Below, piece after piece: positions 935 through 11,910 of a stretch of 11,998 nucleotides of DNA (its first letter is position 1; each line of letters begins with the position of its first letter). Source of the stretch: a virus (taxonomy: Duplodnaviria; Heunggongvirae; Uroviricota; Caudoviricetes). The position numbers and the translations under genes were made by a program. The notes beneath the pieces were generated by a model. That model had not been told where the DNA came from, did no database searches, and worked only from the letters and a program-made list of their open reading frames with translations. The stretch is taken from the IMG/VR virus record IMGVR_UViG_2548876935_000016; one strand, given 5' to 3'.

Positions 935-2620
935 GTGAATATAAACGTCGCCGAATTGTTAAATGGGAATTACATTCTGTTATTATTTGTGGTCCTCGCG
1001 CTTGGGCTATGTCTCGGAAAGTTACGACTTGGTTCGATCCAACTGGGTAATTCCATTGGCGTTTTGGTCGTATCACTGTTATTAGGCCAACAACATTTCA
1101 GCATTAACACCGACGCGCTTAATCTTGGCTTTATGCTGTTTATTTTCTGCGTCGGGGTCGAAGCCGGACCGAACTTTTTTTCCATTTTTTTTCGCGATGG
1201 GAAAAATTACCTAATGTTAGCACTGGTGATGGTTGGCAGTGCGCTGGTGATCGCCTTAGGGTTAGGTAAGCTGTTTGGCTGGGATATTGGCCTGACGGCC
1301 GGTATGTTAGCAGGCTCTATGACGTCGACACCGGTTCTGGTCGGTGCTGGCGATACACTGCGTCATTCCGGCATGGAAAGCAGGCAGCTCTCACTGGCAC
1401 TGGATAATCTGAGCCTCGGGTATGCCTTAACCTATTTAATCGGTCTGGTGAGTTTGATTGTTGGTGCGCGTTACTTGCCGAAATTGCAGCATCAGGACTT
1501 ACAGACCAGCGCCCAGCAAATCGCCCGCGAACGTGGCCTGGACACTGATGCCAACCGTAAGGTTTATTTACCGGTGATCCGCGCCTATCGCGTCGGCCCG
1601 GAGCTGGTGGCCTGGACCGACGGCAAAAATCTGCGTGAACTGGGTATTTATCGACAAACCGGCTGCTACATTGAACGTATTCGACGTAACGGGATTCTGG
1701 CAAATCCAGACGGTGATGCCGTGCTACAAATGGGCGATGAAATAGCGTTGGTAGGCTATCCCGACGCCCATGCCCGACTCGATCCCAGCTTCCGTAACGG
1801 TAAAGAAGTTTTCGATCGTGACCTTCTCGACATGCGTATCGTCACTGAAGAAGTGGTCGTTAAAAACCATAACGCTGTAGGTAAACGTCTCGCACAACTG
1901 AAGTTGACCGATCACGGTTGCTTCCTTAACCGCGTCATTCGTAGCCAGATTGAGATGCCGATAGATGACAACGTCGTGCTTAACAAAGGTGACGTTTTAC
2001 AAGTCAGCGGTGATGCCCGTCGCGTAAAAACCATCGCCGATCGCATCGGCTTTATCTCGATTCACAGCCAGGTCACTGACCTGCTGGCATTTTGCGCCTT
2101 CTTTGTTATTGGGCTGATGATCGGGATGATCACCTTCCAGTTCAGCACATTCAGTTTCGGCATGGGGAACGCTGCCGGGTTGTTATTCGCCGGAATTATG
2201 CTGGGCTTTATGCGTGCTAACCACCCGACCTTCGGTTACATTCCGCAAGGTGCATTAAGCATGGTGAAAGAGTTCGGCTTGATGGTGTTTATGGCAGGCG
2301 TTGGTCTGAGCGCCGGTAGCGGTATTAATAACGGCCTGGGCGCGATTGGCGGTCAGATGTTGATTGCCGGATTAATTGTCAGTCTTGTGCCCGTGGTTAT
2401 CTGTTTCTTGTTCGGTGCTTATGTATTGCGAATGAACCGCGCACTGTTGTTCGGCGCAATGATGGGCGCACGCACCTGCGCGCCGGCAATGGAGATCATC
2501 AGTGATACAGCTCGCAGTAACATCCCTGCGCTGGGCTATGCGGGCACCTACGCAATCGCCAACGTCCTGCTGACGCTGGCAGGGACAATCATCGTCATGG
2601 TATGGCCAGGATTAGGATAA
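935..2620 (+). CDS. ybjL: Putative transporter YbjL (AAE / aspartate:alanine exchanger family, two membrane domains with central cytoplasmic domain)
   Basis: 561-aa ORF with hydrophobic N- and C-terminal halves around a soluble central region. Starts at GTG 935 ([16 protein letters not shown]...). Matches E. coli YbjL in length and sequence from memory, and in synteny. Confidence 0.93.
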
Positions 2621-2732
2621 AACTGAAGTTGCCCTGAAAATGAAATTTTTTTGCACAACCGCAGAACTTTTCCGCAGGGCATCAGTCTTAATTAGTGCCA
2701 CTGCTTTTCTTTGATGTCCCCATTTTGTGGAG

Positions 2733-2775
2733 CCCATCAACCCCGCCATTTCGGTTCAAGGTTGATGGGTTTTTT
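2733..2775 (+). terminator. Rho-independent terminator-like hairpin downstream of ybjL
   Basis: Perfect 10-bp inverted repeat cccatcaacc (2733-2742) / ggttgatggg (2760-2769) with a 17-nt loop, immediately followed by tttttt (2770-2775). Confidence 0.6.
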
Positions 2776-2855
2776 GTTGTCTGAAATTTATGCCTTTTAA
2801 AATCATGATGTTAGAAGCACTGCTTTTTAACGATGGCGACAAAATGGCGGCAGCG

Positions 2856-3074
2856 TCAAAGAGAGAGCGCCACCTGTCCTGATTTCATTGGATGCGGCTG
2901 AACCGGATTTGACTCTTTTGGCGTTGCAATCGAACGAACAAAAGTTTCATGGGTAACAAAAGTATGGCTGCAGTTAATGTTCTGGCACTGGTTGTAACGC
3001 TCTTTGGTCAATGAAGATACCTGAAAACTGCTGCGAGTATGGGCGGCACTTCCACACAGTGGGCAAATCATCAT
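2856..3074 (-). CDS. ogr: Ogr-family zinc-finger late-gene transcriptional activator
   Basis: 72-aa product MMICPLCGSAAHTRSS...KERYNQCQNINCSHTF with the CxxC...CxxxxC zinc-finger arrangement characteristic of P2 Ogr / P4 Delta. The track ORF starts at 3107, but a GGGGAGA Shine-Dalgarno sits 8 nt upstream of the ATG at 3074, which gives the 72-aa length I recall for P2 Ogr. Position immediately after D at the prophage end matches P2 gene order. Confidence 0.85.
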   Translation of the reverse strand: MMICPLCGSAAHTRSSFQVSSLTKERYNQCQNINCSHTFVTHETFVRSIATPKESNPVQPHPMKSGQVALSL

Positions 3075-3164
3075 TTTTCGAGTTCTCCCCATTTTTGCTA
3101 AATTCACAATAATGATACCGCATTATTCCATTTTGCAAACTTAAAAGTTCTCCATTGCGAAGAA

Positions 3165-4265
3165 TCATTCCATTTCGAAATCATCAATCCTCACTTCAAG
3201 CTCCAGACTGGTTGTAAAACCGTTATCCGGGCTGACGGTATGTGTCAGAGTCGTAATGGTCCATTCCGCATCATCTATCGGCTGTTTAAAACCACTGACC
3301 TTCACAGGCATTTCCGTGTAGAGATCTGCCCGCCCTTCCGCCAGTTGTAGCGAGAATGACGCAACGCCACGTTGCAGGCGTTCCCACTGCATTTTCGCTG
3401 CCCGTTCAGCGTTGCTCCGGTTGGCATAAGTGCGATTAAGTACCAGCACGTTTTCATCCGTCCCCACCAGGTAATCGCCCTGCTTCGCTTCCGGCTCTTT
3501 CTTCTGCTTCTTAGTCCTGCGCTTACGCTTCACCGTAGTGCTTTCTTTCTTCGCGGGTTCGCGGGTATGCAACCAGCTGGCAATTACCCCCGTGTAAGCT
3601 CCGCGATCTGCCAGGGTAAAGCGGTGACTGTCGCCGTCCTTACGTGTGATAGTAATCACCGGCAGTGGTTTACCGCTGGCGCTTTTGCCCTGTCCCTGCC
3701 GGATGAATAACAGATTGCCATTTTTCACCGATGCAATGGCACCGTACTGGCGCGCCAGCCGCATCAAAAAACTGCCGTCACTCTCATTAGTCTGGTCTAT
3801 ATGCTCCACGGGCTTATCCGACAGGTCTTTACCCAGTGCCATCTTCAGCTTGTGCCGCGCGGCTATTTCCTTCACCACTTCCCCGATGGTGGTGTTATGC
3901 CACGATTTTTCACGGCGGGTATTCAGCGTTTCCCGAAAATCAGCACTTCGCGCCCGGATAGTCAGGCGGTCCGGTGCGCCAGTGTGTTCAATCTCGTCTA
4001 CCGTGAATGCCCCTTTCGGGAAAAGCGGCTGCCCCTTCCAGCCCAGCGCCAGCGTAATGACCGCACCACGGCGCGGCAGCACGATTTTTCCGTCGGCGTC
4101 GTCCAGCTCCAGATCAAGCTGGTCCGCTTCAAAGCCCCGATTGTCCGTCAGCGTCAGACTCATCAGGCGGTTATCCAGCACAGTGGTGATATCCTTCCCC
4201 TCAATACTGATGCTGAATGCGGGAGTTTTGTTTCCTTTGTTAAGCAGTTCAGAGCTGAAATTCAC
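3165..4265 (-). CDS. D: Tail protein D (late control gene D family)
   Basis: 366-aa ORF with gpD-like motifs (LTLTDNRGFEADQLDLELDD...). Apparent GTG start at 4265 overlaps the U stop (GTGA), suggesting translational coupling. Position between U and ogr matches P2. Confidence 0.9.
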   Translation of the reverse strand: MNFSSELLNKGNKTPAFSISIEGKDITTVLDNRLMSLTLTDNRGFEADQLDLELDDADGKIVLPRRGAVITLALGWKGQPLFPKGAFTVDEIEHTGAPDRLTIRARSADFRETLNTRREKSWHNTTIGEVVKEIAARHKLKMALGKDLSDKPVEHIDQTNESDGSFLMRLARQYGAIASVKNGNLLFIRQGQGKSASGKPLPVITITRKDGDSHRFTLADRGAYTGVIASWLHTREPAKKESTTVKRKRRTKKQKKEPEAKQGDYLVGTDENVLVLNRTYANRSNAERAAKMQWERLQRGVASFSLQLAEGRADLYTEMPVKVSGFKQPIDDAEWTITTLTHTVSPDNGFTTSLELEVRIDDFEME

Positions 4266-4747
4266 GACAGCAGCCCTCCCACCGTTTTACTGATATCGCT
4301 TAAGGCAGACGTTGCCGTGTCCTGCAGATTATTCAGTTGAGTACTGAGATCACCGAACATATCGGACAGGGATTCATCCACCCGTTTTAGCGAAAGGGTG
4401 AACTCAATCCTGCGCGGCATACCGTCGCGGAAAAACTCCGTTTTAGTCTGATTCAGTCCCTCAATCACATACATGCCGTAAATCGTGCCGCTGCCTTCAA
4501 TCAGGGGCCATGCTTTCCCCTGTTCTGCCATCTGCTCCAGTGCCAGCAACGACAGCCTGCCGCCTGTTATCTCCGGCATAAGAACACCGGAAAGCGTCAG
4601 CATGTCGTTTTCCGGTCCCAGAAACTGCGTGGACGGACGACGGTTTACCCGGCTGTTTGCCGCATGTCGCCAGCTGCGTTGATACTGCAGTTCCTGATAC
4701 GGAACGGTGCGCAGCATAAACACGTACAATCCCAGCACCATCATCAT
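4262..4747 (-). CDS. U: Tail protein U (tail terminator-like)
   Basis: 161-aa ORF beginning MMMVLGLYVF... Its ATG overlaps the T stop codon (ATGA at 4744-4747). Size and order match P2 gpU. Confidence 0.9.
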   Translation of the reverse strand: MMMVLGLYVFMLRTVPYQELQYQRSWRHAANSRVNRRPSTQFLGPENDMLTLSGVLMPEITGGRLSLLALEQMAEQGKAWPLIEGSGTIYGMYVIEGLNQTKTEFFRDGMPRRIEFTLSLKRVDESLSDMFGDLSTQLNNLQDTATSALSDISKTVGGLLS

Positions 4748-7700
4748 GCGTCGTATCCCCCCTGATCGCTGTAGTTACTCCTGGCTTTTGCCTTCAGCCT
4801 GCGTTCACGTTCATCAAGCTGGCGTGCCACCTCCCGCGCAATATCCTGCGCACTTTGTCCTGGCTGCGTCTGAATGATGATCTGCGTCGGTGCCTCAATC
4901 CGTTGAACGAGCGGCACAGTGGCTGCGCGACTCACAATTGCTTCTCCACCTTTCGCGGGAAGTGCCAAAGGGTGCAACGGTGGAAGCTCTGCTGGCGCGG
5001 CAGCAACGCCCATCATTCCGGCAACAACGGCAGCCAGTGCAGCTGTATTTCTCCGGCTGGTCACATTTGCCGGGCCGTTAACAATTTCCGGCCCGTTTTC
5101 ACCGACGATGCCAAACTGCCCGCGCGGGATATAGCCGCCGCTGTCATACATCCCCGCAAAGCCATATCCCCATGACGGAAAACCACCCGATGGCATCATC
5201 ACTTTACCGTCTGCATTCACCGTCGCAGGTTGCTGACGCGTCACGCTTTCCGGCAGTTTCGCCTTTGCAGCCTCTTTACTGACAATGCCGAGTTTATCCA
5301 GCAACCACGACACACCTGATTTAAGCGACTCAAGCGGGTGCATCACCATATTCAGACCTTCTGCCAGCGCCTCACCAAATCTACGGCCCATTGCAGCTGC
5401 GCTGTTCAGTTCCTCAGAAGTCGATTTAACTGGCGAAAGTAAATCAGTGAACCAGCCCCACAATGCCTGCACCTTGTCGCCAATCCACTGGAAAACCGGC
5501 CGCAGTGGTTCAAATGCAGCACTGATCGGGCCAGCAGCCGCTTTAAAGCCTTCAACCACACCACCCAGAAAAGCGCTGATGGGCTGCCAGTATTTCCAGA
5601 CAACCAGCGCCACGCCTGCCAGTGCAGCCACAACCAGACCTATCGGACTGAGCAATACCCCAAGCACGCTGCCAACGCCCACCAGAGCTGCACGCAACAA
5701 CGCAAACGGTGACATGACGAGCCATCTAATCACACCCCCAGCCCCCCTTACCGAAGTAACCAACGGTGCAAAGGCAGCACTTGCCAGCCCGCGAATTTTC
5801 GTACCAAGCAGGCGGACCGCTTCGCCGGGGTTAAGAAAAGAAGACACCAGAGTTTCACCCGCCTGCCGGGCATGTTCTTTGATTTTATCCAGCGCCCCGT
5901 CGCGGAACGCATCCAGGATACCGCCACCGTCATCATCCCCGCCGCCGCTGAGTGCCTCTCGGATACGACTTATCCAGTTAACTGTCTCGCCCGCTTCATT
6001 TCCCGAAAACAGCCCGAATAGTTTTTTCAGTGCATCGCCGGACTGGAACAAACCGGGTGCAAATGAAGTGAACGCCTGGCCCAGGCGCCCCAGCAACGGA
6101 CTGAGCCTGCCAAGACCGGTGAGTGCCAGCGTTTTCATTCCAAAACGCAGCAGGGCGAGCGGCCCCAGAATGGCCGCCATCGCAATCGCCAGGGTGCCCA
6201 GCGCAAGCGTAACCGAAGCCACCACAGCGGCAATCTTCATCAACCGGCCCGCCAGTTCCGGATTAGCTTCCACCCAGCGGCGCATTACTCCCGTCACGCG
6301 CCTTACCGCTTCCATGATTTCCATCAGCGGAGCACGCAGCGTTTCACCCAGGCTGCTGAACGTATTGGTAACCCCGGTTTTCACCAGCAACCACTGAGCA
6401 GAAAGTGAGTCTTTGTTGATGTCGGATTCTTTCTGCATGGAACCGAGCGCATCATTGCCCGCTGTCAGTTTTAGCTGGCGCTGCAGTTCCGGAAGGTTGT
6501 TTGCCAGTTTCGCCGCGTCATCACCAAACTCTTTACCAAACAACATGGTCATGGCAGACAGACGCTTGTCCTGCGGCAGTGCGTTCACCTTCTCCAGCAC
6601 ACGCTGGATAGTTCCCATCGCATCCTTCGTCATCTGCTTTTCAATCACTTCAGGATTGAGTTTCAGCAGATTCATCCCTTCAAAGAAACTCTTGCTTTGC
6701 ATGGTGGCAATGGATAATTCACGCACCATCGCGTTTGCTGCACTGGCTGCAACCTCCGGCGCAGCGCCCAGTGTCAGAAAGGTGGAACCCAGTGCCGCCG
6801 CTTTACGATAATCCAGACGGTCAGCCACACCGCCCAGACGTTGCATCACATCAATGATGTCCGCCCCTTTCGACATGGCGTTATCATCCAGATAGTTCAG
6901 CGCATCGCCGAGCTGTTCAATATTGCGGGTAGGTATTTTGTAGAGCTGGGCGATTTTCCCCAGACTTTCTGACAGTTCATCCGCTGGCAGCTCAAAGGCT
7001 GTTGCCGCCTTTGCTGCCGTACTGGCGAAGGCCAGCAGGTCACGTTTCTGGTCTTCCCAGCTGTCGTCAGGGTTTGCGACGTTCATGCGCGCACCACCTT
7101 CAACCAGTGCAGCGAAATCCACCGCACCGTTTTCCATCGGCAACTGTTCGCTGGCAGCCTTGATGGCATCCTGCATTTCATAAAAACGTGCAGTGCGGTT
7201 GCCATTATCGTCACGCAGACCATTGACCTGCTTTGCCACACCTTTCATGGCATCTTCCATGCTGGTATAGCTTTTTACTGCCGCCATCACTGGTGCGCCC
7301 ATTGCCAGCCCTGCAGCCGTGGTGGTGGCTCCGGCACCTGCAATCCGATCCCTTACTTCAAGACGCCTGGCGTAAGCCCCTCGGGCGGCGTGCATTTTTC
7401 GCTGTTGCTCCCCGACACGTCGTAACCTCGCTTCCTGCTCAGAAAGCTGCCTGTTATAACGCATCGTTTCACGGGTAATGCGGGCCGTCGCACTGGCACC
7501 ATCATTAGCTGAAATACCAGCACGATAAAGTTCTGCACGCACAAGCGCCGTCTGCTGCTGCAGCTTTTTCTGGCGTTCTTCCAGGCGCTGAACAGCCAGC
7601 CGTTGACGGCCCAGAGCAACAACCTGACGTTGCGAAGGCGGCCCCATCGCTCCCAGTTCCTGACTGAGCAAATTTGCACGCTGGCGGGCATAGCTCAGCC

Positions 7701-7917
7701 TGTCGCCTAATTTCTGATTTTCTGCCTGCAGCTTTCGGAAGCTGTCCAGACTGCTCCCGGCCTGATCAAGCTGCTTTATTGCATCGCGGGATTTTTTGAC
7801 AGCAGCAGCCAGTTCTCTTGAACTGGCCTGCGCAGATCGAAATGGGCGGGTGAGCTTGTCAACCGCATTAAGAATGACCTGCAGACGCAGGTTATTGTCA
7901 CTCATGGCTGGCCCCAC
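4744..7917 (-). CDS. T: Tail tape measure protein
   Basis: 1057-aa ORF with an N-terminal coiled-coil-like charged region, Gly/Ala-rich hydrophobic central segments and a C-terminal region, typical of tape measure proteins, in the expected position between E/E' and U. The track start at 7917 is GTG; an in-frame ATG at 7905 overlaps the predicted E' stop and is an equally plausible true start. Confidence 0.9.
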   Translation of the reverse strand: MGPAMSDNNLRLQVILNAVDKLTRPFRSAQASSRELAAAVKKSRDAIKQLDQAGSSLDSFRKLQAENQKLGDRLSYARQRANLLSQELGAMGPPSQRQVVALGRQRLAVQRLEERQKKLQQQTALVRAELYRAGISANDGASATARITRETMRYNRQLSEQEARLRRVGEQQRKMHAARGAYARRLEVRDRIAGAGATTTAAGLAMGAPVMAAVKSYTSMEDAMKGVAKQVNGLRDDNGNRTARFYEMQDAIKAASEQLPMENGAVDFAALVEGGARMNVANPDDSWEDQKRDLLAFASTAAKAATAFELPADELSESLGKIAQLYKIPTRNIEQLGDALNYLDDNAMSKGADIIDVMQRLGGVADRLDYRKAAALGSTFLTLGAAPEVAASAANAMVRELSIATMQSKSFFEGMNLLKLNPEVIEKQMTKDAMGTIQRVLEKVNALPQDKRLSAMTMLFGKEFGDDAAKLANNLPELQRQLKLTAGNDALGSMQKESDINKDSLSAQWLLVKTGVTNTFSSLGETLRAPLMEIMEAVRRVTGVMRRWVEANPELAGRLMKIAAVVASVTLALGTLAIAMAAILGPLALLRFGMKTLALTGLGRLSPLLGRLGQAFTSFAPGLFQSGDALKKLFGLFSGNEAGETVNWISRIREALSGGGDDDGGGILDAFRDGALDKIKEHARQAGETLVSSFLNPGEAVRLLGTKIRGLASAAFAPLVTSVRGAGGVIRWLVMSPFALLRAALVGVGSVLGVLLSPIGLVVAALAGVALVVWKYWQPISAFLGGVVEGFKAAAGPISAAFEPLRPVFQWIGDKVQALWGWFTDLLSPVKSTSEELNSAAAMGRRFGEALAEGLNMVMHPLESLKSGVSWLLDKLGIVSKEAAKAKLPESVTRQQPATVNADGKVMMPSGGFPSWGYGFAGMYDSGGYIPRGQFGIVGENGPEIVNGPANVTSRRNTAALAAVVAGMMGVAAAPAELPPLHPLALPAKGGEAIVSRAATVPLVQRIEAPTQIIIQTQPGQSAQDIAREVARQLDERERRLKAKARSNYSDQGGYDA

Positions 7918-8334
7918 TTCTCTGAATCGCTTTATACCGCCATTCCAGCACTTCGGTCAGCGGCATAACGTCAGTAACGGATGGCGGCCAGTGAAAAATG
8001 GTGGCGATATCTGCCACCAGATCGTCAACCGTCAGGCTGTCGGTAAACCGGCAAGCACCGACTTCTTCAACAAAAAAGTGACAACCTCAACCGACATGGT
8101 TGTGAGATCTGCCGGGTCCATCTCTGCGATTTCCTGTGCAGTCAGTGCCGGACTGGAGATGCGGGGGATCACGGTCATCATCGCGTTCACATCCATATCC
8201 ATAATGGCCTGCAGGCGTGTGCCGCGCAGCGCACCGGACTGCGGTTTACGCAACACAATTTCGGTAATTTCTGTTTTACCGCGCATGATGGGGGTATCCA
8301 GTTGAATGGTCTTTTCAGTCTGTTTATCGCTCAT
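7898..8334 (-). CDS. E': Tail assembly chaperone E+E' (product of programmed -1 ribosomal frameshift)
   Basis: Hand translation: after a -1 slip on T TTT TTG (plus-strand 8071-8077, read on the minus strand) the -1 frame stays open for 57 codons (VEEVGACRFTDSLTVDDLVADIATIFHWPPSVTDVMPLTEVLEWRYKAIQRSGASHE) and stops at TGA 7900-7898, overlapping the T ATG at 7905. Predicted about 145 aa, close to the roughly 142 aa I recall for P2 E+E'. Confidence 0.6.
8032..8334 (-). CDS. E: Tail assembly chaperone E
   Basis: 100-aa ORF directly upstream of T and downstream of FII. Carries a TTTTTTG slippery heptamer 13 codons before its stop, as expected for the E/E' pair. Confidence 0.85.
   Translation of the reverse strand: MSDKQTEKTIQLDTPIMRGKTEITEIVLRKPQSGALRGTRLQAIMDMDVNAMMTVIPRISSPALTAQEIAEMDPADLTTMSVEVVTFLLKKSVLAGLPTA
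8071..8077 (-). other. Slippery heptamer T TTT TTG for the E/E' -1 frameshift
   Basis: Minus-strand sequence gtc ACT TTT TTG ttg in the E frame; heptamer of X XXY YYZ form located 13 codons before the E stop. Confidence 0.6.
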
Positions 8335-8388: not shown

Positions 8389-8904
8389 TCAGAGGCCGAG
8401 GGCGTTGCGGTGCGCTTCCATCAGGTCCACACCGTCCACAATTTCCACCATGTTGATAAGGTCCACTTCATAGAGCACCTCACCATTGATGGTCAGCTTC
8501 GCGTAGCTGTTGGTACTGGTCACTTTGGTGGTGTTGCTTTCGCCCGTCTTCCACTCGCCGGAATCCACTTCTTTGTGACGTCCACGCACGACAAGCTCCA
8601 CGGCCTGCACTTCCCCGGTATCGTCACGCTGGATAGAGCCGGTAAAGCGCAGCTGGATGCCATCCACCGTGGATTTGCCCATCTGCTTAAACAGCAGCAG
8701 TTCAGTACCACCAATGGAAAATTCTGTATCCAGTGCACTGTCATCCAGTCCCAGATCCACATCCACTGCACCCGGCATTCCGCCGCCGCGATACTTCTCA
8801 TATTTGCGGGTAAATTTCGGCAGCGTCAGCGACTCAACGATCCCCTGCCAGTTGTTCCCGTCGTTAAACAGGTTCAGGTGTTTTAATTTGCGTGGTAAAG
8901 CCAT
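8389..8904 (-). CDS. FII: Major tail tube protein
   Basis: 171-aa ORF immediately downstream of the sheath gene; size and order match P2 FII. Confidence 0.9.
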   Translation of the reverse strand: MALPRKLKHLNLFNDGNNWQGIVESLTLPKFTRKYEKYRGGGMPGAVDVDLGLDDSALDTEFSIGGTELLLFKQMGKSTVDGIQLRFTGSIQRDDTGEVQAVELVVRGRHKEVDSGEWKTGESNTTKVTSTNSYAKLTINGEVLYEVDLINMVEIVDGVDLMEAHRNALGL

Positions 8905-8913
8905 GTTGTCCCC

Positions 8914-10086
8914 TTACGCGCTGACCTGGCTGGCGAAATTCACCAGGTACTGATCGGTGATGCGCTGACGCAGCATCAGGTTTTCAAGTGGCGGCACTGG
9001 CGTGTAGTCGTAGTCGATGGTGAGTTTTCCGGCTTTCAGCGTGTCTTTGTCGTTCACCGACTCATCCAGCCAGCAATCACCACCAATGAGATAGCCCTGA
9101 CTGACCAGGCTGCGCATTTTGGCGCGGATACCTTCGATAATGTCGCGGGCCAGCGACGGGTTAAGCGTTTTATCCACCGCCCACATGTGTGCTTCTGCCA
9201 TCGTGTCCATCAGCACCTGCGCCGTGCGGGTGTAGTTTTCGAAGGCAAAGAGCGGGTCATCACTCAGGCAGCGGGAACCCCAGAAGCGGAAACCGTCTTT
9301 ACGCACAAGCGTGGTGACGTCGTTCTGGTTCAGCAGACCTGCATCGGTTGCCGGGTCCTGCAGATCCCAGAACACATCTGCAGAAATTCCGGTGACACCG
9401 TTCACGCCCACGTTGGACAGGCTTTTGTGCCATCCGGTCTGCTCGTCAATTTTGGCGCGCAGACCAAGCGCACGGGCGGTGGCATATGCCGTTGCTTCGG
9501 CATTCAGCACCGTGTCCCAGCCAGTAAAGTCAGGCCAGATCAGCATCCCTTCGCGCTGGCTGAAGTTTTCGCGGTAAGTGATCGCCTCCTGCACTGTCTT
9601 GCAGCCATACGCTGACAGGTAAGCAAATCCACGCAGGCTTTGCGCCACGCTCAGCAACTCAGTAGCTACCGCCTTGGTGTCGTGGCCTGGCACGCCGAGA
9701 ATGCGCGGTTTAACGCCGAGCTGTGACTGGGCAGATAACAGGGCTTTCATACCTGTTTTTTTACCTTCAGCAGTCACTGCGCCGATGATATTGGTCGTGG
9801 TTTCGTCTTCCGTTTCACCCTGCGGCACACGCACAACAATGGTCACGGGTTTTGCCTGGTCAGCGATGGCATCCAGCGAACGGGCCAGAGTACCGGACTC
9901 ACCCGCTTTACCGCTGGCAGTCAGCACATCAGTGATCAGCACGGGTTTATTAAGAGGAAACATTTTTGCATCGGCATCATCGCCCGTGCAGACCATACCC
10001 ACGATGGCGGTGCTCACCGTGGTAATAGATCGGGTGCCTTCGTTGACTTCAACAACGCGCACCCCGTGGTGGTAATCCTGAGCCAT
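8914..10086 (-). CDS. FI: Contractile tail sheath protein
   Basis: 390-aa ORF, first gene of the FI-FII-E-T-U-D operon, with AGGAGG 9 nt upstream of the ATG. Sequence family and size match P2 FI. Confidence 0.92.
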
Positions 10087-10228: not shown

Positions 10229-10795
10229 TCAGGGGGATTCATTGATCTTATTTGCCGGAAATTTTCTATAAATGGTAGAAACGCCTACATCAAAAATCAG
10301 TGCAATACGCTGTCTTGATTCTCCGGCCTCGAGTAAACGCCCAATCTGTGCCCACTGTTCGGTGGTCAACTTAGGACGGCGTCCACCTACTCTGCCTTTG
10401 GTACGAGCTGCAGCCAGCCCTGCCCTGGTACGTTCAACTATCAGTTCGCGTTCCATTTCAGCCAGGGCACCCATGACATGAAAAAAGAAACGGCCCATTG
10501 GGGTACTGGTATCAATACTGTCAGTCAGGCTTCTGAAATTCACACCACGCTGGCGCAACTCTTCTATCAGCGTAACAAGATGCCGCATACTGCGCCCCAA
10601 CCTGTCCAGCTTCCAGACAACCAGCGTGTCTCCTGCCGATAGTATCCTGAGCAGTTTTTTCAGCCCCGGTCTGTCGGACTTAGTGCCACTGATTTTATCC
10701 TCAAAAATCCGCTCACATCCCGCGCAGTTCAGCGCATTGCGTTGCAAATCGGTGTTCTGGTCATTTGTTGACACGCGTACATAGCCAATAAGCAT
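10229..10795 (-). CDS. Serine site-specific DNA invertase (Gin/Cin/Pin/Hin family)
   Basis: 188-aa product MLIGYVRVSTNDQNTDLQRNAL... with the catalytic-serine N-terminal motif and a C-terminal helix-turn-helix, closely resembling Mu Gin as I recall it. The track start at 10801 gives MTM...; the ATG at 10795 has AAGGAGA at good spacing and matches the family N-terminus. Confidence 0.9.
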   Translation of the reverse strand: MLIGYVRVSTNDQNTDLQRNALNCAGCERIFEDKISGTKSDRPGLKKLLRILSAGDTLVVWKLDRLGRSMRHLVTLIEELRQRGVNFRSLTDSIDTSTPMGRFFFHVMGALAEMERELIVERTRAGLAAARTKGRVGGRRPKLTTEQWAQIGRLLEAGESRQRIALIFDVGVSTIYRKFPANKINESP

Positions 10796-10822
10796 GGTCA
10801 TCTCCTTGAATAAAAATCGGGG

Positions 10823-11317
10823 ATGATGCCAGTTAGTCGTAATCGCTGCATTTTCTTAAACGTTGGTTTGGGAGAAGGTGCTCCAGCTATTGGCGTTCCG
10901 TTCTTCTGGCCGTCCGCCGCAATGCCAAATACTGTAATCGACAGTTGGTCCAGTATGGTGTTTTTGAAGTTCAACGGCGCGAAATTCTCTGCCACTGATT
11001 ACCCTGTGCTGGCGAAAGTGTTTCCGGCGCTAGCATTACCTGACGCACGCGGTGAATTCCCACGCATCTGGGATGACGGGCGCGGTGTGGATGCTGGACG
11101 CACGTTATTAAGCTTTCAAAGTGACGACTTTAAGGCCCACGGTCATAACTTCGAATCCTGGCCCGACAGCGGCAATCCGGCATCAAAAGGGGGGGCTGTA
11201 GATGCTCGCGGCGGTAATGGAAATAGATACATCACATCGGGTGTGGTCAAGGAAACGGGAGGCACCGAAACCCGACCAAGAAACATAGCATTCAACTTTT
11301 TAGTAAGGGCGAAATAA
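10823..11317 (+). CDS. Tail fibre variable C-terminal cassette (Mu S / P1 S / Stf-like variable part), currently detached from its constant N-terminal part
   Basis: Open frame ending ...GGTETRPRNIAFNFLVRAK, with the LPDARGEFPRIWDDGRGVDAGR motif typical of invertible tail-fibre C-termini. There is no upstream tail-fibre body on this strand, the frame crosses the crossover site, and its stop overlaps the downstream tfa start (TAATG). The ATG at 10823 is probably not a real start. Confidence 0.75.
   Translation: MMPVSRNRCIFLNVGLGEGAPAIGVPFFWPSAAMPNTVIDSWSSMVFLKFNGAKFSATDYPVLAKVFPALALPDARGEFPRIWDDGRGVDAGRTLLSFQSDDFKAHGHNFESWPDSGNPASKGGAVDARGGNGNRYITSGVVKETGGTETRPRNIAFNFLVRAK
10851..10876. other. 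gix/cix/hix-like 26-bp inversion crossover site (left boundary of invertible tail-fibre segment)
   Basis: TTTTCTTAAACG-TT-GGTTTGGGAGAA: two imperfect inverted 12-bp half-sites around a 2-bp core, matching the TTnTCnnAAACC half-site pattern of Gin/Cin/Hin recombination sites. It lies about 55 bp from the invertase start and inside the tail-fibre reading frame, as gix lies inside Mu S. Confidence 0.6.
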
Positions 11318-11910
11318 TGACACCTGTTTTTGATGAAAATGGACTGGCTACAGTGCCTGGTGATATGCGTTGTTTTTATTATAATGCAGTAACGTATGAA
11401 TATATGGGCTGGTCTGATGAATATATTAATACTGGTGTAAGTATGCCCGCCTGCTCCACTGGTATTGACCCTGGCGAATACATTCCGGGAAGAGTGGCAG
11501 TATTTACGGGTAAGGGATGGAGCCATGAAGAAGACCATCGCAATGAGACCGTTTACTCAACTGAAAATGGCGCAGCTGTTACAGTGGATTATATCGGTGC
11601 CATCAAAGACGGTTATGTCACGCTTTCACCGTTAACGCCATACGATAAATGGGATGGTGAGAAATGGGTGACGGATACCGAGGCACAGCATAGCGCCGCA
11701 GTAGAAGCGGCAGAAGCACAGCGCCAGTCGCTGATTGATGCTGCAATGGCTTCCATCAGTCTGATTCAACTGAAATTACAGGCTGGGCGGAAGCTGACGC
11801 AGCCAGAAAACACCCGACTTAACGCTGTGCTGGATTACATTGACGCGGTGACGGCAACAGATACCAGCACAGCGCCGGACGTCATCTGGCCTGAACTGCC
11901 GGAGGCGTAG
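11317..11910 (+). CDS. Tail fibre assembly protein (Tfa / Mu U / P2 G family)
   Basis: 197-aa ORF translationally coupled to the fibre cassette. C-terminus ...TAPDVIWPELPEA resembles the conserved Tfa C-terminal motif. Confidence 0.88.
   Translation: MTPVFDENGLATVPGDMRCFYYNAVTYEYMGWSDEYINTGVSMPACSTGIDPGEYIPGRVAVFTGKGWSHEEDHRNETVYSTENGAAVTVDYIGAIKDGYVTLSPLTPYDKWDGEKWVTDTEAQHSAAVEAAEAQRQSLIDAAMASISLIQLKLQAGRKLTQPENTRLNAVLDYIDAVTATDTSTAPDVIWPELPEA

Follow-up and report, generated by a model that had tools for sequence, protein, structure and literature searches.

A probable −1 frameshift at the E/E' tail-chaperone locus of a P2-like Escherichia coli prophage

The stretch of DNA analyzed here, which has a length of 11,998 nucleotides and is referred to as the window, carries on its minus strand a series of genes in the order of the late tail operon of phage P2: the sheath gene (8914..10086, Pfam Phage_sheath_1), the tube gene FII (8389..8904, Pfam PF04985 Phage_tube, E = 1.2e-59), gene E, the tape measure gene T (4744..7905, Pfam PF10145 PhageMin_Tail), U (4262..4747, Pfam Phage_P2_GpU), D (3165..4265, Pfam Phage_GPD) and ogr (2856..3107, Pfam Ogr_Delta). 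The tube gene is located immediately upstream of E, and in P2 the E locus is likewise found between FII and T. The phage record closest to the window, Escherichia phage 500465-1 (98% nucleotide identity), belongs to the Peduoviridae and, within this family, to Wadgaonvirus, a genus different from that of P2. The flanking host genes are grxA-ybjM-ybjL of E. coli. The gene for the small RNA RybB (2700-2778, plus strand; Rfam RF00110, 105 bits) is situated directly between ybjL (935-2620, plus strand) and that end of the prophage at which ogr is found, and this position tells us that the P2-like prophage has its insertion point directly 3' of rybB. The E/T region of E. coli SCU-106 is 99.6% identical and adjoins ssrA instead. 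Near-identical tail modules are therefore present in prophages with different attachment sites.

Further observations concern other parts of the tail region. A resolvase-type DNA invertase (10229..10801, minus strand) adjoins open reading frames on the opposite strand for a tail-collar protein (10823..11317) and a tail-fibre-assembly protein (11317..11910), and the whole region from 10229 to 11910 resembles the invertible host-range segments of Gin/Cin/Hin systems. Crossover sites of this putative segment were not located, and the search yielded a single weak inverted repeat (11829/11955). The tape measure protein T consists of 1053 aa, compared to 1025 aa in the closest phage. The ends of the two proteins are nearly identical, and the central part (about residues 530-760) has diverged, is of mosaic nature and contains 28 additional aa here. 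Tandem repeats in T, which were sought as an explanation for the extra 28 residues, were not found. On the basis of the longer T, a slightly longer tail is predicted.

Gene E (8032..8334, minus strand) starts with ATG at 8334, ends with TGA at 8034..8032 and encodes a tail assembly chaperone, the zero-frame product of which has 100 aa. Its codons 86 to 88 read ACT TTT TTG and are overlapped by the heptamer TTTTTTG at 8071..8077, which is consequently phased as X_XXY_YYZ (T_TTT_TTG), just as tandem −1 slippage of tRNAs needs it. The first-pass annotation had placed this heptamer 13 codons before the E stop and had proposed that it is followed by an open −1 frame of 57 codons. Both statements agree with the translation: there are 13 codons from TTG (codon 88) to the stop (codon 101), and 57 sense codons (VEEVGACRF...RSGASHE) can be counted from G8071 to the TGA at 7900..7898. 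A recount for stop codons within the extension found none. The E' extension occupies 7898..8071 on the minus strand, and translation of the E+E' fusion gives 145 aa with the N-terminus of E. The stretch from 8032 to 8070 is dual-coding: it holds the last 12 codons and the stop codon of E (frame 0) and, in the −1 frame, the first 13 codons of E'. Gene T lies in the same frame as E and begins with ATG at 7905..7903, the start codon that is also annotated in relatives. The open reading frames of E' and T overlap by 8 nt (junction sequence ATGAGTGA). The original claim that the TGA of E' overlaps the ATG of T has to be corrected, as the two codons do not share a base and the TGA is located 3 nt downstream, over codons 2-3 of T.

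TTTTTTG is found five times in the window, where 3.8 occurrences are expected, and the window contains 54 open reading frames of at least 50 aa. It could thus be argued that a heptamer that is no rarer than expected coincides by chance, and without biological meaning, with an open frame of a length that is common. Since heptamer and open frame are each insignificant alone, the case rests on a Pfam match of the −1 frame (E = 6e-19), on conservation in 41 of 41 loci and on a switch in codon phase. These three lines of evidence, which are presented in the following, refute a chance coincidence, the probability of which is negligible.

The E protein is recognized by Pfam model PF10109 (Phage_TAC_7; 66 bits with a cutoff of 25, E = 2.9e-18), described in Pfam as 'tail assembly chaperone proteins E, or 41 or 14', and by PHROG 103 'tail' (E = 2.6e-43). 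The −1 extension on its own matches PF06528 (Phage_P2_GpE; 67.7 bits with a cutoff of 23, E = 5.8e-19) and PHROG 1756 'tail' (E = 8e-22), the latter alignment covering residues 3-56 of the extension. When the fusion was used as the query in a tblastn search, 418 phage records matched. Among the best 60 of these, the match consisted of two pieces in different frames wherever both parts were covered, and the three weakest of the 60 records were matched by the E part only. The NCBIfam search gave no match for E or for the E+E' fusion, and the PDB sequence search matched no solved structure. A single-sequence AlphaFold model of the fusion (pLDDT 44.5) was too poor for fold comparison.

The fusion aligned with P2 E+E' over 141 residues without any gap (47% identity, E = 3e-50). 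The junction (VVTFFVEEVGA here, VVGFFVAELGA in P2) and the FHWPPS motif are both part of this gapless alignment. The P2 E+E' query was assembled manually and has Phe as its junction residue; whether this residue is Leu or Phe makes no difference to the result. The alignment of the extension to P2 E' that had been suggested as a check thus gave a gapless match, in addition to the PF06528 match already mentioned. In the P2 record (NC_001895), E extends from 19430 to 19705, the joined E+E' continues to 19857 and bears the remark '-1 frameshift; essential tail protein', and the start of T is at 19850. According to the account in PMC3091744, the shift in P2 takes place at TTTTTTG and results in an E protein of 91 aa and an E+E' protein of 142 aa (Christie et al. 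2002; Xu et al. 2004), and the slippery site is kept in other P2-like phages. The two loci have much in common: the heptamer is in the same phase (GGT TTT TTG in P2), the direction of the shift is −1, the extension comprises 57 codons, and the overlap of E' and T amounts to 8 nt (ATGAGTAA in P2, ATGAGTGA here), the sequence context of the T start being conserved. On the other hand, E is longer here than in P2 (100 versus 91 aa), and the zero-frame tail past the heptamer differs in both length and sequence, with 12 residues (LKKSVLAGLPTA) here and six (SPNSVQ) in P2. In the −1 frame, the dual-coding stretch aligns without gaps and reads VEEVGACRFTDS in this clade and VAELGAVTFPKN in P2. With an end-to-end alignment of the fusion to P2 E+E' and conservation in 41 of 41 loci, the earlier proposal that the P2-type chaperone frameshift arrangement is reproduced here has held up well.

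Conservation was assessed with 49 comparison loci altogether. A scan of species-representative genomes yielded 39 loci, 37 of them complete, with E identities of 60-97%. The scan loci, two phage records and P2 served as the basis for a set of 41 loci from about 20 genera of Enterobacterales (e.g., Escherichia, Citrobacter, Enterobacter, Pantoea, Erwinia, Tatumella, and Buttiauxella). Every one of the 41 loci contains T_TTT_TTG or T_TTT_TTA in phase and has an open −1 frame of 57-59 codons that terminates within the start of T. Although codon 86 is four-fold degenerate at its third base, this base is T in 30 of 30 distinct sequences, compared to a share of 13% for ACT among the Thr codons elsewhere in E. 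Similarly, the codon for Leu 88 is TTR in each of the 41 loci, while TTR makes up 2% of the Leu codons elsewhere in E. It follows from these frozen synonymous sites that the heptamer is held against codon usage.

The distribution of variability over the codon positions points in the same direction. Upstream of the heptamer, the mean pairwise diversity at positions 1/2/3 of the E frame is 0.159/0.083/0.389. From the E stop to the E' stop, the values are 0.101/0.033/0.272 in the E' frame, and past the E' stop they are 0.145/0.123/0.412 in the T frame, which is the same as that of E. In the 36-nt dual-coding stretch, diversity is low at all positions (0.128/0.094/0.186) and neither frame exhibits a clear third-position peak. 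The variability peak therefore changes frame where expected, first from E to E' and then from E' to T, which establishes that the −1 frame is under protein-coding selection where this was predicted. Altogether, we consider it highly probable, with a probability of about 0.92, that 7898..8334 is the E/E+E' tail-chaperone locus of a P2-like (Peduoviridae, Wadgaonvirus-like) E. coli prophage and that its two products would be made by −1 frameshifting.

Public records give another picture of the same region. They contain a stand-alone open reading frame for a 39-aa 'GpE family phage tail protein' that corresponds to 7898..8017 on the minus strand and starts with GTG 8017. It is present as a separate coding sequence of 120 nt in NC_049342, CP019275, the PGAP record of E. 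coli SCU-106, RE-2010, ST258-KPC3phi16.2 and 4LV2017, and records from Pseudomonas, Zymomonas, Acidovorax and Shewanella likewise have two open reading frames, albeit with slightly different lengths. As the close records examined all list a 100-aa 'tail assembly protein' and, with no apparent relation to it, the 39-aa open reading frame, the 145-aa product is absent from their annotation. The initial assertion that pipelines miss E' is thus correct for the fusion and incorrect for E' as a whole, a truncated 39-aa version of which is listed in PGAP and phage records.

Taken literally, this annotation describes two independent genes, one for the 100-aa E protein and one for a free 39-aa GpE peptide starting from GTG 8017, and it dispenses with a frameshift. 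It is used in every close relative examined, the PF06528 model covers only the 39-aa part, and the position of GTG 8017 is occupied by ATG in P2, Burkholderia, Pseudomonas and Shewanella. In principle, GTG 8017 could also start a free 39-aa peptide. However, in 41 of 41 loci the −1 frame can be read without a stop from the heptamer onwards, and its protein sequence is conserved over this whole distance. The 15 nt that separate the E stop from GTG 8017 are no exception: they encode a conserved T-V-D-D-L in the −1 frame and change mainly at third positions. In total, 18 codons ahead of GTG 8017 are conserved in this frame, five of which (T-V-D-D-L) would be 'intergenic' if there were two genes. 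Moreover, the PHROG 1756 alignment begins as early as residue 3 of the extension and the P2 alignment is gapless through the junction. The start codon itself is not conserved, its position being taken by codons for Ile, Trp and Ile in Mannheimia, Vibrio and Acidovorax, respectively, and inspection of the sequence ahead of GTG 8017 revealed no Shine-Dalgarno motif. Two separate genes would also leave the frozen synonymous sites of the heptamer unexplained, and for P2, both the annotation of NC_001895 and the account of PMC3091744 describe a fusion made by frameshifting. We judge the existence of two independent genes to be very improbable, and the 39-aa open reading frame is read as an annotation artefact that represents the C-terminal part of E+E'.

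Eight more distant relatives among the Peduoviridae were included in the comparison, and seven of them have a slippery heptamer at the equivalent position. It is TTTTTTG in the relatives from Burkholderia (Carl1, annotated as joined E+E'), Pseudomonas, Acidovorax and Shewanella, TTTTTTC in the Vibrio relative, TTTTTTT in the Zymomonas relative and GGGAAAG in the Mannheimia relative. The heptamer was left unscored in Ralstonia phage RSY1 (AB981169), in which the annotated ORF30 (352-822) lies wholly in the E' frame and has a distant upstream TTG as its start. The resulting 156-aa 'hypothetical protein' is out-of-frame nonsense in its N-terminal two thirds and is another form of mis-annotation at the E/E' locus.

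The nature of the heptamers also bears on the question of which machinery slips. At a homopolymer run, RNA polymerase might add one U within the run of six, and normal reading of the edited mRNA would likewise give access to the −1 frame, an outcome that sequence alone cannot separate from ribosomal slippage. Yet six T residues are fewer than the runs usually required for efficient polymerase slippage, and the non-homopolymeric GGGAAAG that the Mannheimia relative has at the same place fits re-pairing of tRNAs and not polymerase stuttering. Furthermore, conservation applies to the X_XXY_YYZ phase and extends to the first T, a base of importance for tandem tRNA slippage, and the P2 case is described as translational in the P2 record and in the title of Christie et al. 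(2002) as cited in PMC3091744. Transcriptional slippage is therefore judged to be very improbable as well, and slippage of the ribosome is the preferred reading.

Candidate elements that may stimulate the ribosomal shift can be found on both sides of the heptamer. On the upstream side, a Shine-Dalgarno-like GAGG (8085..8088, minus strand) is located 7 nt 5' of the heptamer. The respective Glu codon is GAG in 29 of 30 distinct relatives, which are phylogenetically related sequences, as opposed to a GAA:GAG ratio of 163:41 (20% GAG) in the rest of E, and there is free variation at synonymous sites nearby. The 7-nt spacing is also seen in P2 (AAGG), Burkholderia Carl1 (GAGG) and Acidovorax Alfacinha1 (GGAGG). 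A possible parallel to the GAGG at 8088..8085 is provided by the Shine-Dalgarno-like element upstream of the frameshift site in E. coli dnaX (gamma/tau), where a tandem −1 slip likewise takes place on a homopolymer-type heptamer. In dnaX, however, the Shine-Dalgarno element is positioned 10 nt rather than 7 nt upstream, the site is followed by a strong stem-loop, and the shift leads to early termination and not to an extension. It is possible that GAGG acts as an upstream frameshift stimulator, and we treat it as a modest lead and not as a finding.

On the downstream side, a hairpin with the outer stem GUCGG...CUGAC is predicted at 8031..8062 (minus strand). Its distance from the heptamer is 8 nt, the E stop codon lies inside it, and the 88-nt fold around it has a minimum free energy of −29.7 kcal/mol (z = −2.9, single sequence). 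Single-sequence folds let the hairpin recur in most relatives, and a modest structure of this kind 8 nt downstream of the heptamer can form in this clade, but not in P2. RNAalifold found no consensus structure for the relatives, and explicit pair counting showed that the pairing is retained in 90% of cells and that compensatory changes do not exceed those in shuffles, because the hairpin stretch is dual-coding and nearly invariant. Given that neither consensus fold nor pair counts provide covariation, a downstream stimulatory structure is not claimed. The idea that GAGG(U/G) 7 nt upstream and the hairpin 8 nt downstream could together set the ratio of E to E+E' in this enterobacterial clade is rather unlikely; if it were true, the P2-type shift in this clade would not be stimulator-free, unlike what is reported for P2, for which PMC3091744, citing Xu et al. 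(2004), mentions that a downstream structure is absent.

The following sequence of events is proposed for the synthesis of the two proteins. Most ribosomes would read E in frame to the TGA at 8034..8032 and thus produce the 100-aa chaperone. A minority would slip by −1 on T_TTT_TTG (8077..8071), whereby the P- and A-site tRNAs on TTT and TTG would re-pair with TTT and TTT. The slipped ribosomes would go on from G8071 and translate 57 codons to the TGA at 7900..7898, which would result in the 145-aa E+E' protein with the same N-terminus. Decoding of TTG ahead of the slip would place Leu at residue 88; in the other case, this residue would be Phe. Classical tandem slippage would accordingly be expected to create the junction peptide ...TTMSVEVVTFLVEEVGACR, with F instead of L if the slip precedes A-site decoding.

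With regard to function, the gpG/gpGT proteins of phage lambda offer themselves for comparison. Similarity to them at the sequence level is not expected. Lambda slips on G_GGA_AAG and has a non-contractile tail, and its T is a separate open reading frame well upstream of the tape measure gene H that does not overlap the start of H. By analogy with gpG/gpGT, the domain that E and E+E' have in common would coat T, the E' domain, which is the rarer one, would recruit the tube protein FII, which would then polymerise around T, and neither E nor E+E' would remain in the virion. In the lambda system, it is the short form that coats the tape measure and the extension that recruits tube subunits (PMC5009743). 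Slippage in the phage studied here and the binding partners of its E proteins are inferred. Production of the fusion and the need for both products in tail assembly are known for P2 only, on the basis of the record annotation and of literature to which PMC3091744 refers.

The locus is an orthologue of a well-characterised recoding site with an already known mechanism: the tail-chaperone frameshift is textbook knowledge, is conserved in tailed phages and has been demonstrated in P2. The practical value of the finding lies in the correction of annotation. About 1000 of 5426 complete E. coli genomes contain the locus. Where E and the 39-aa open reading frame are listed as two genes, 18 codons of real coding sequence are annotated as the tail of E or as intergenic DNA, and a joined coding sequence would be the correct annotation.
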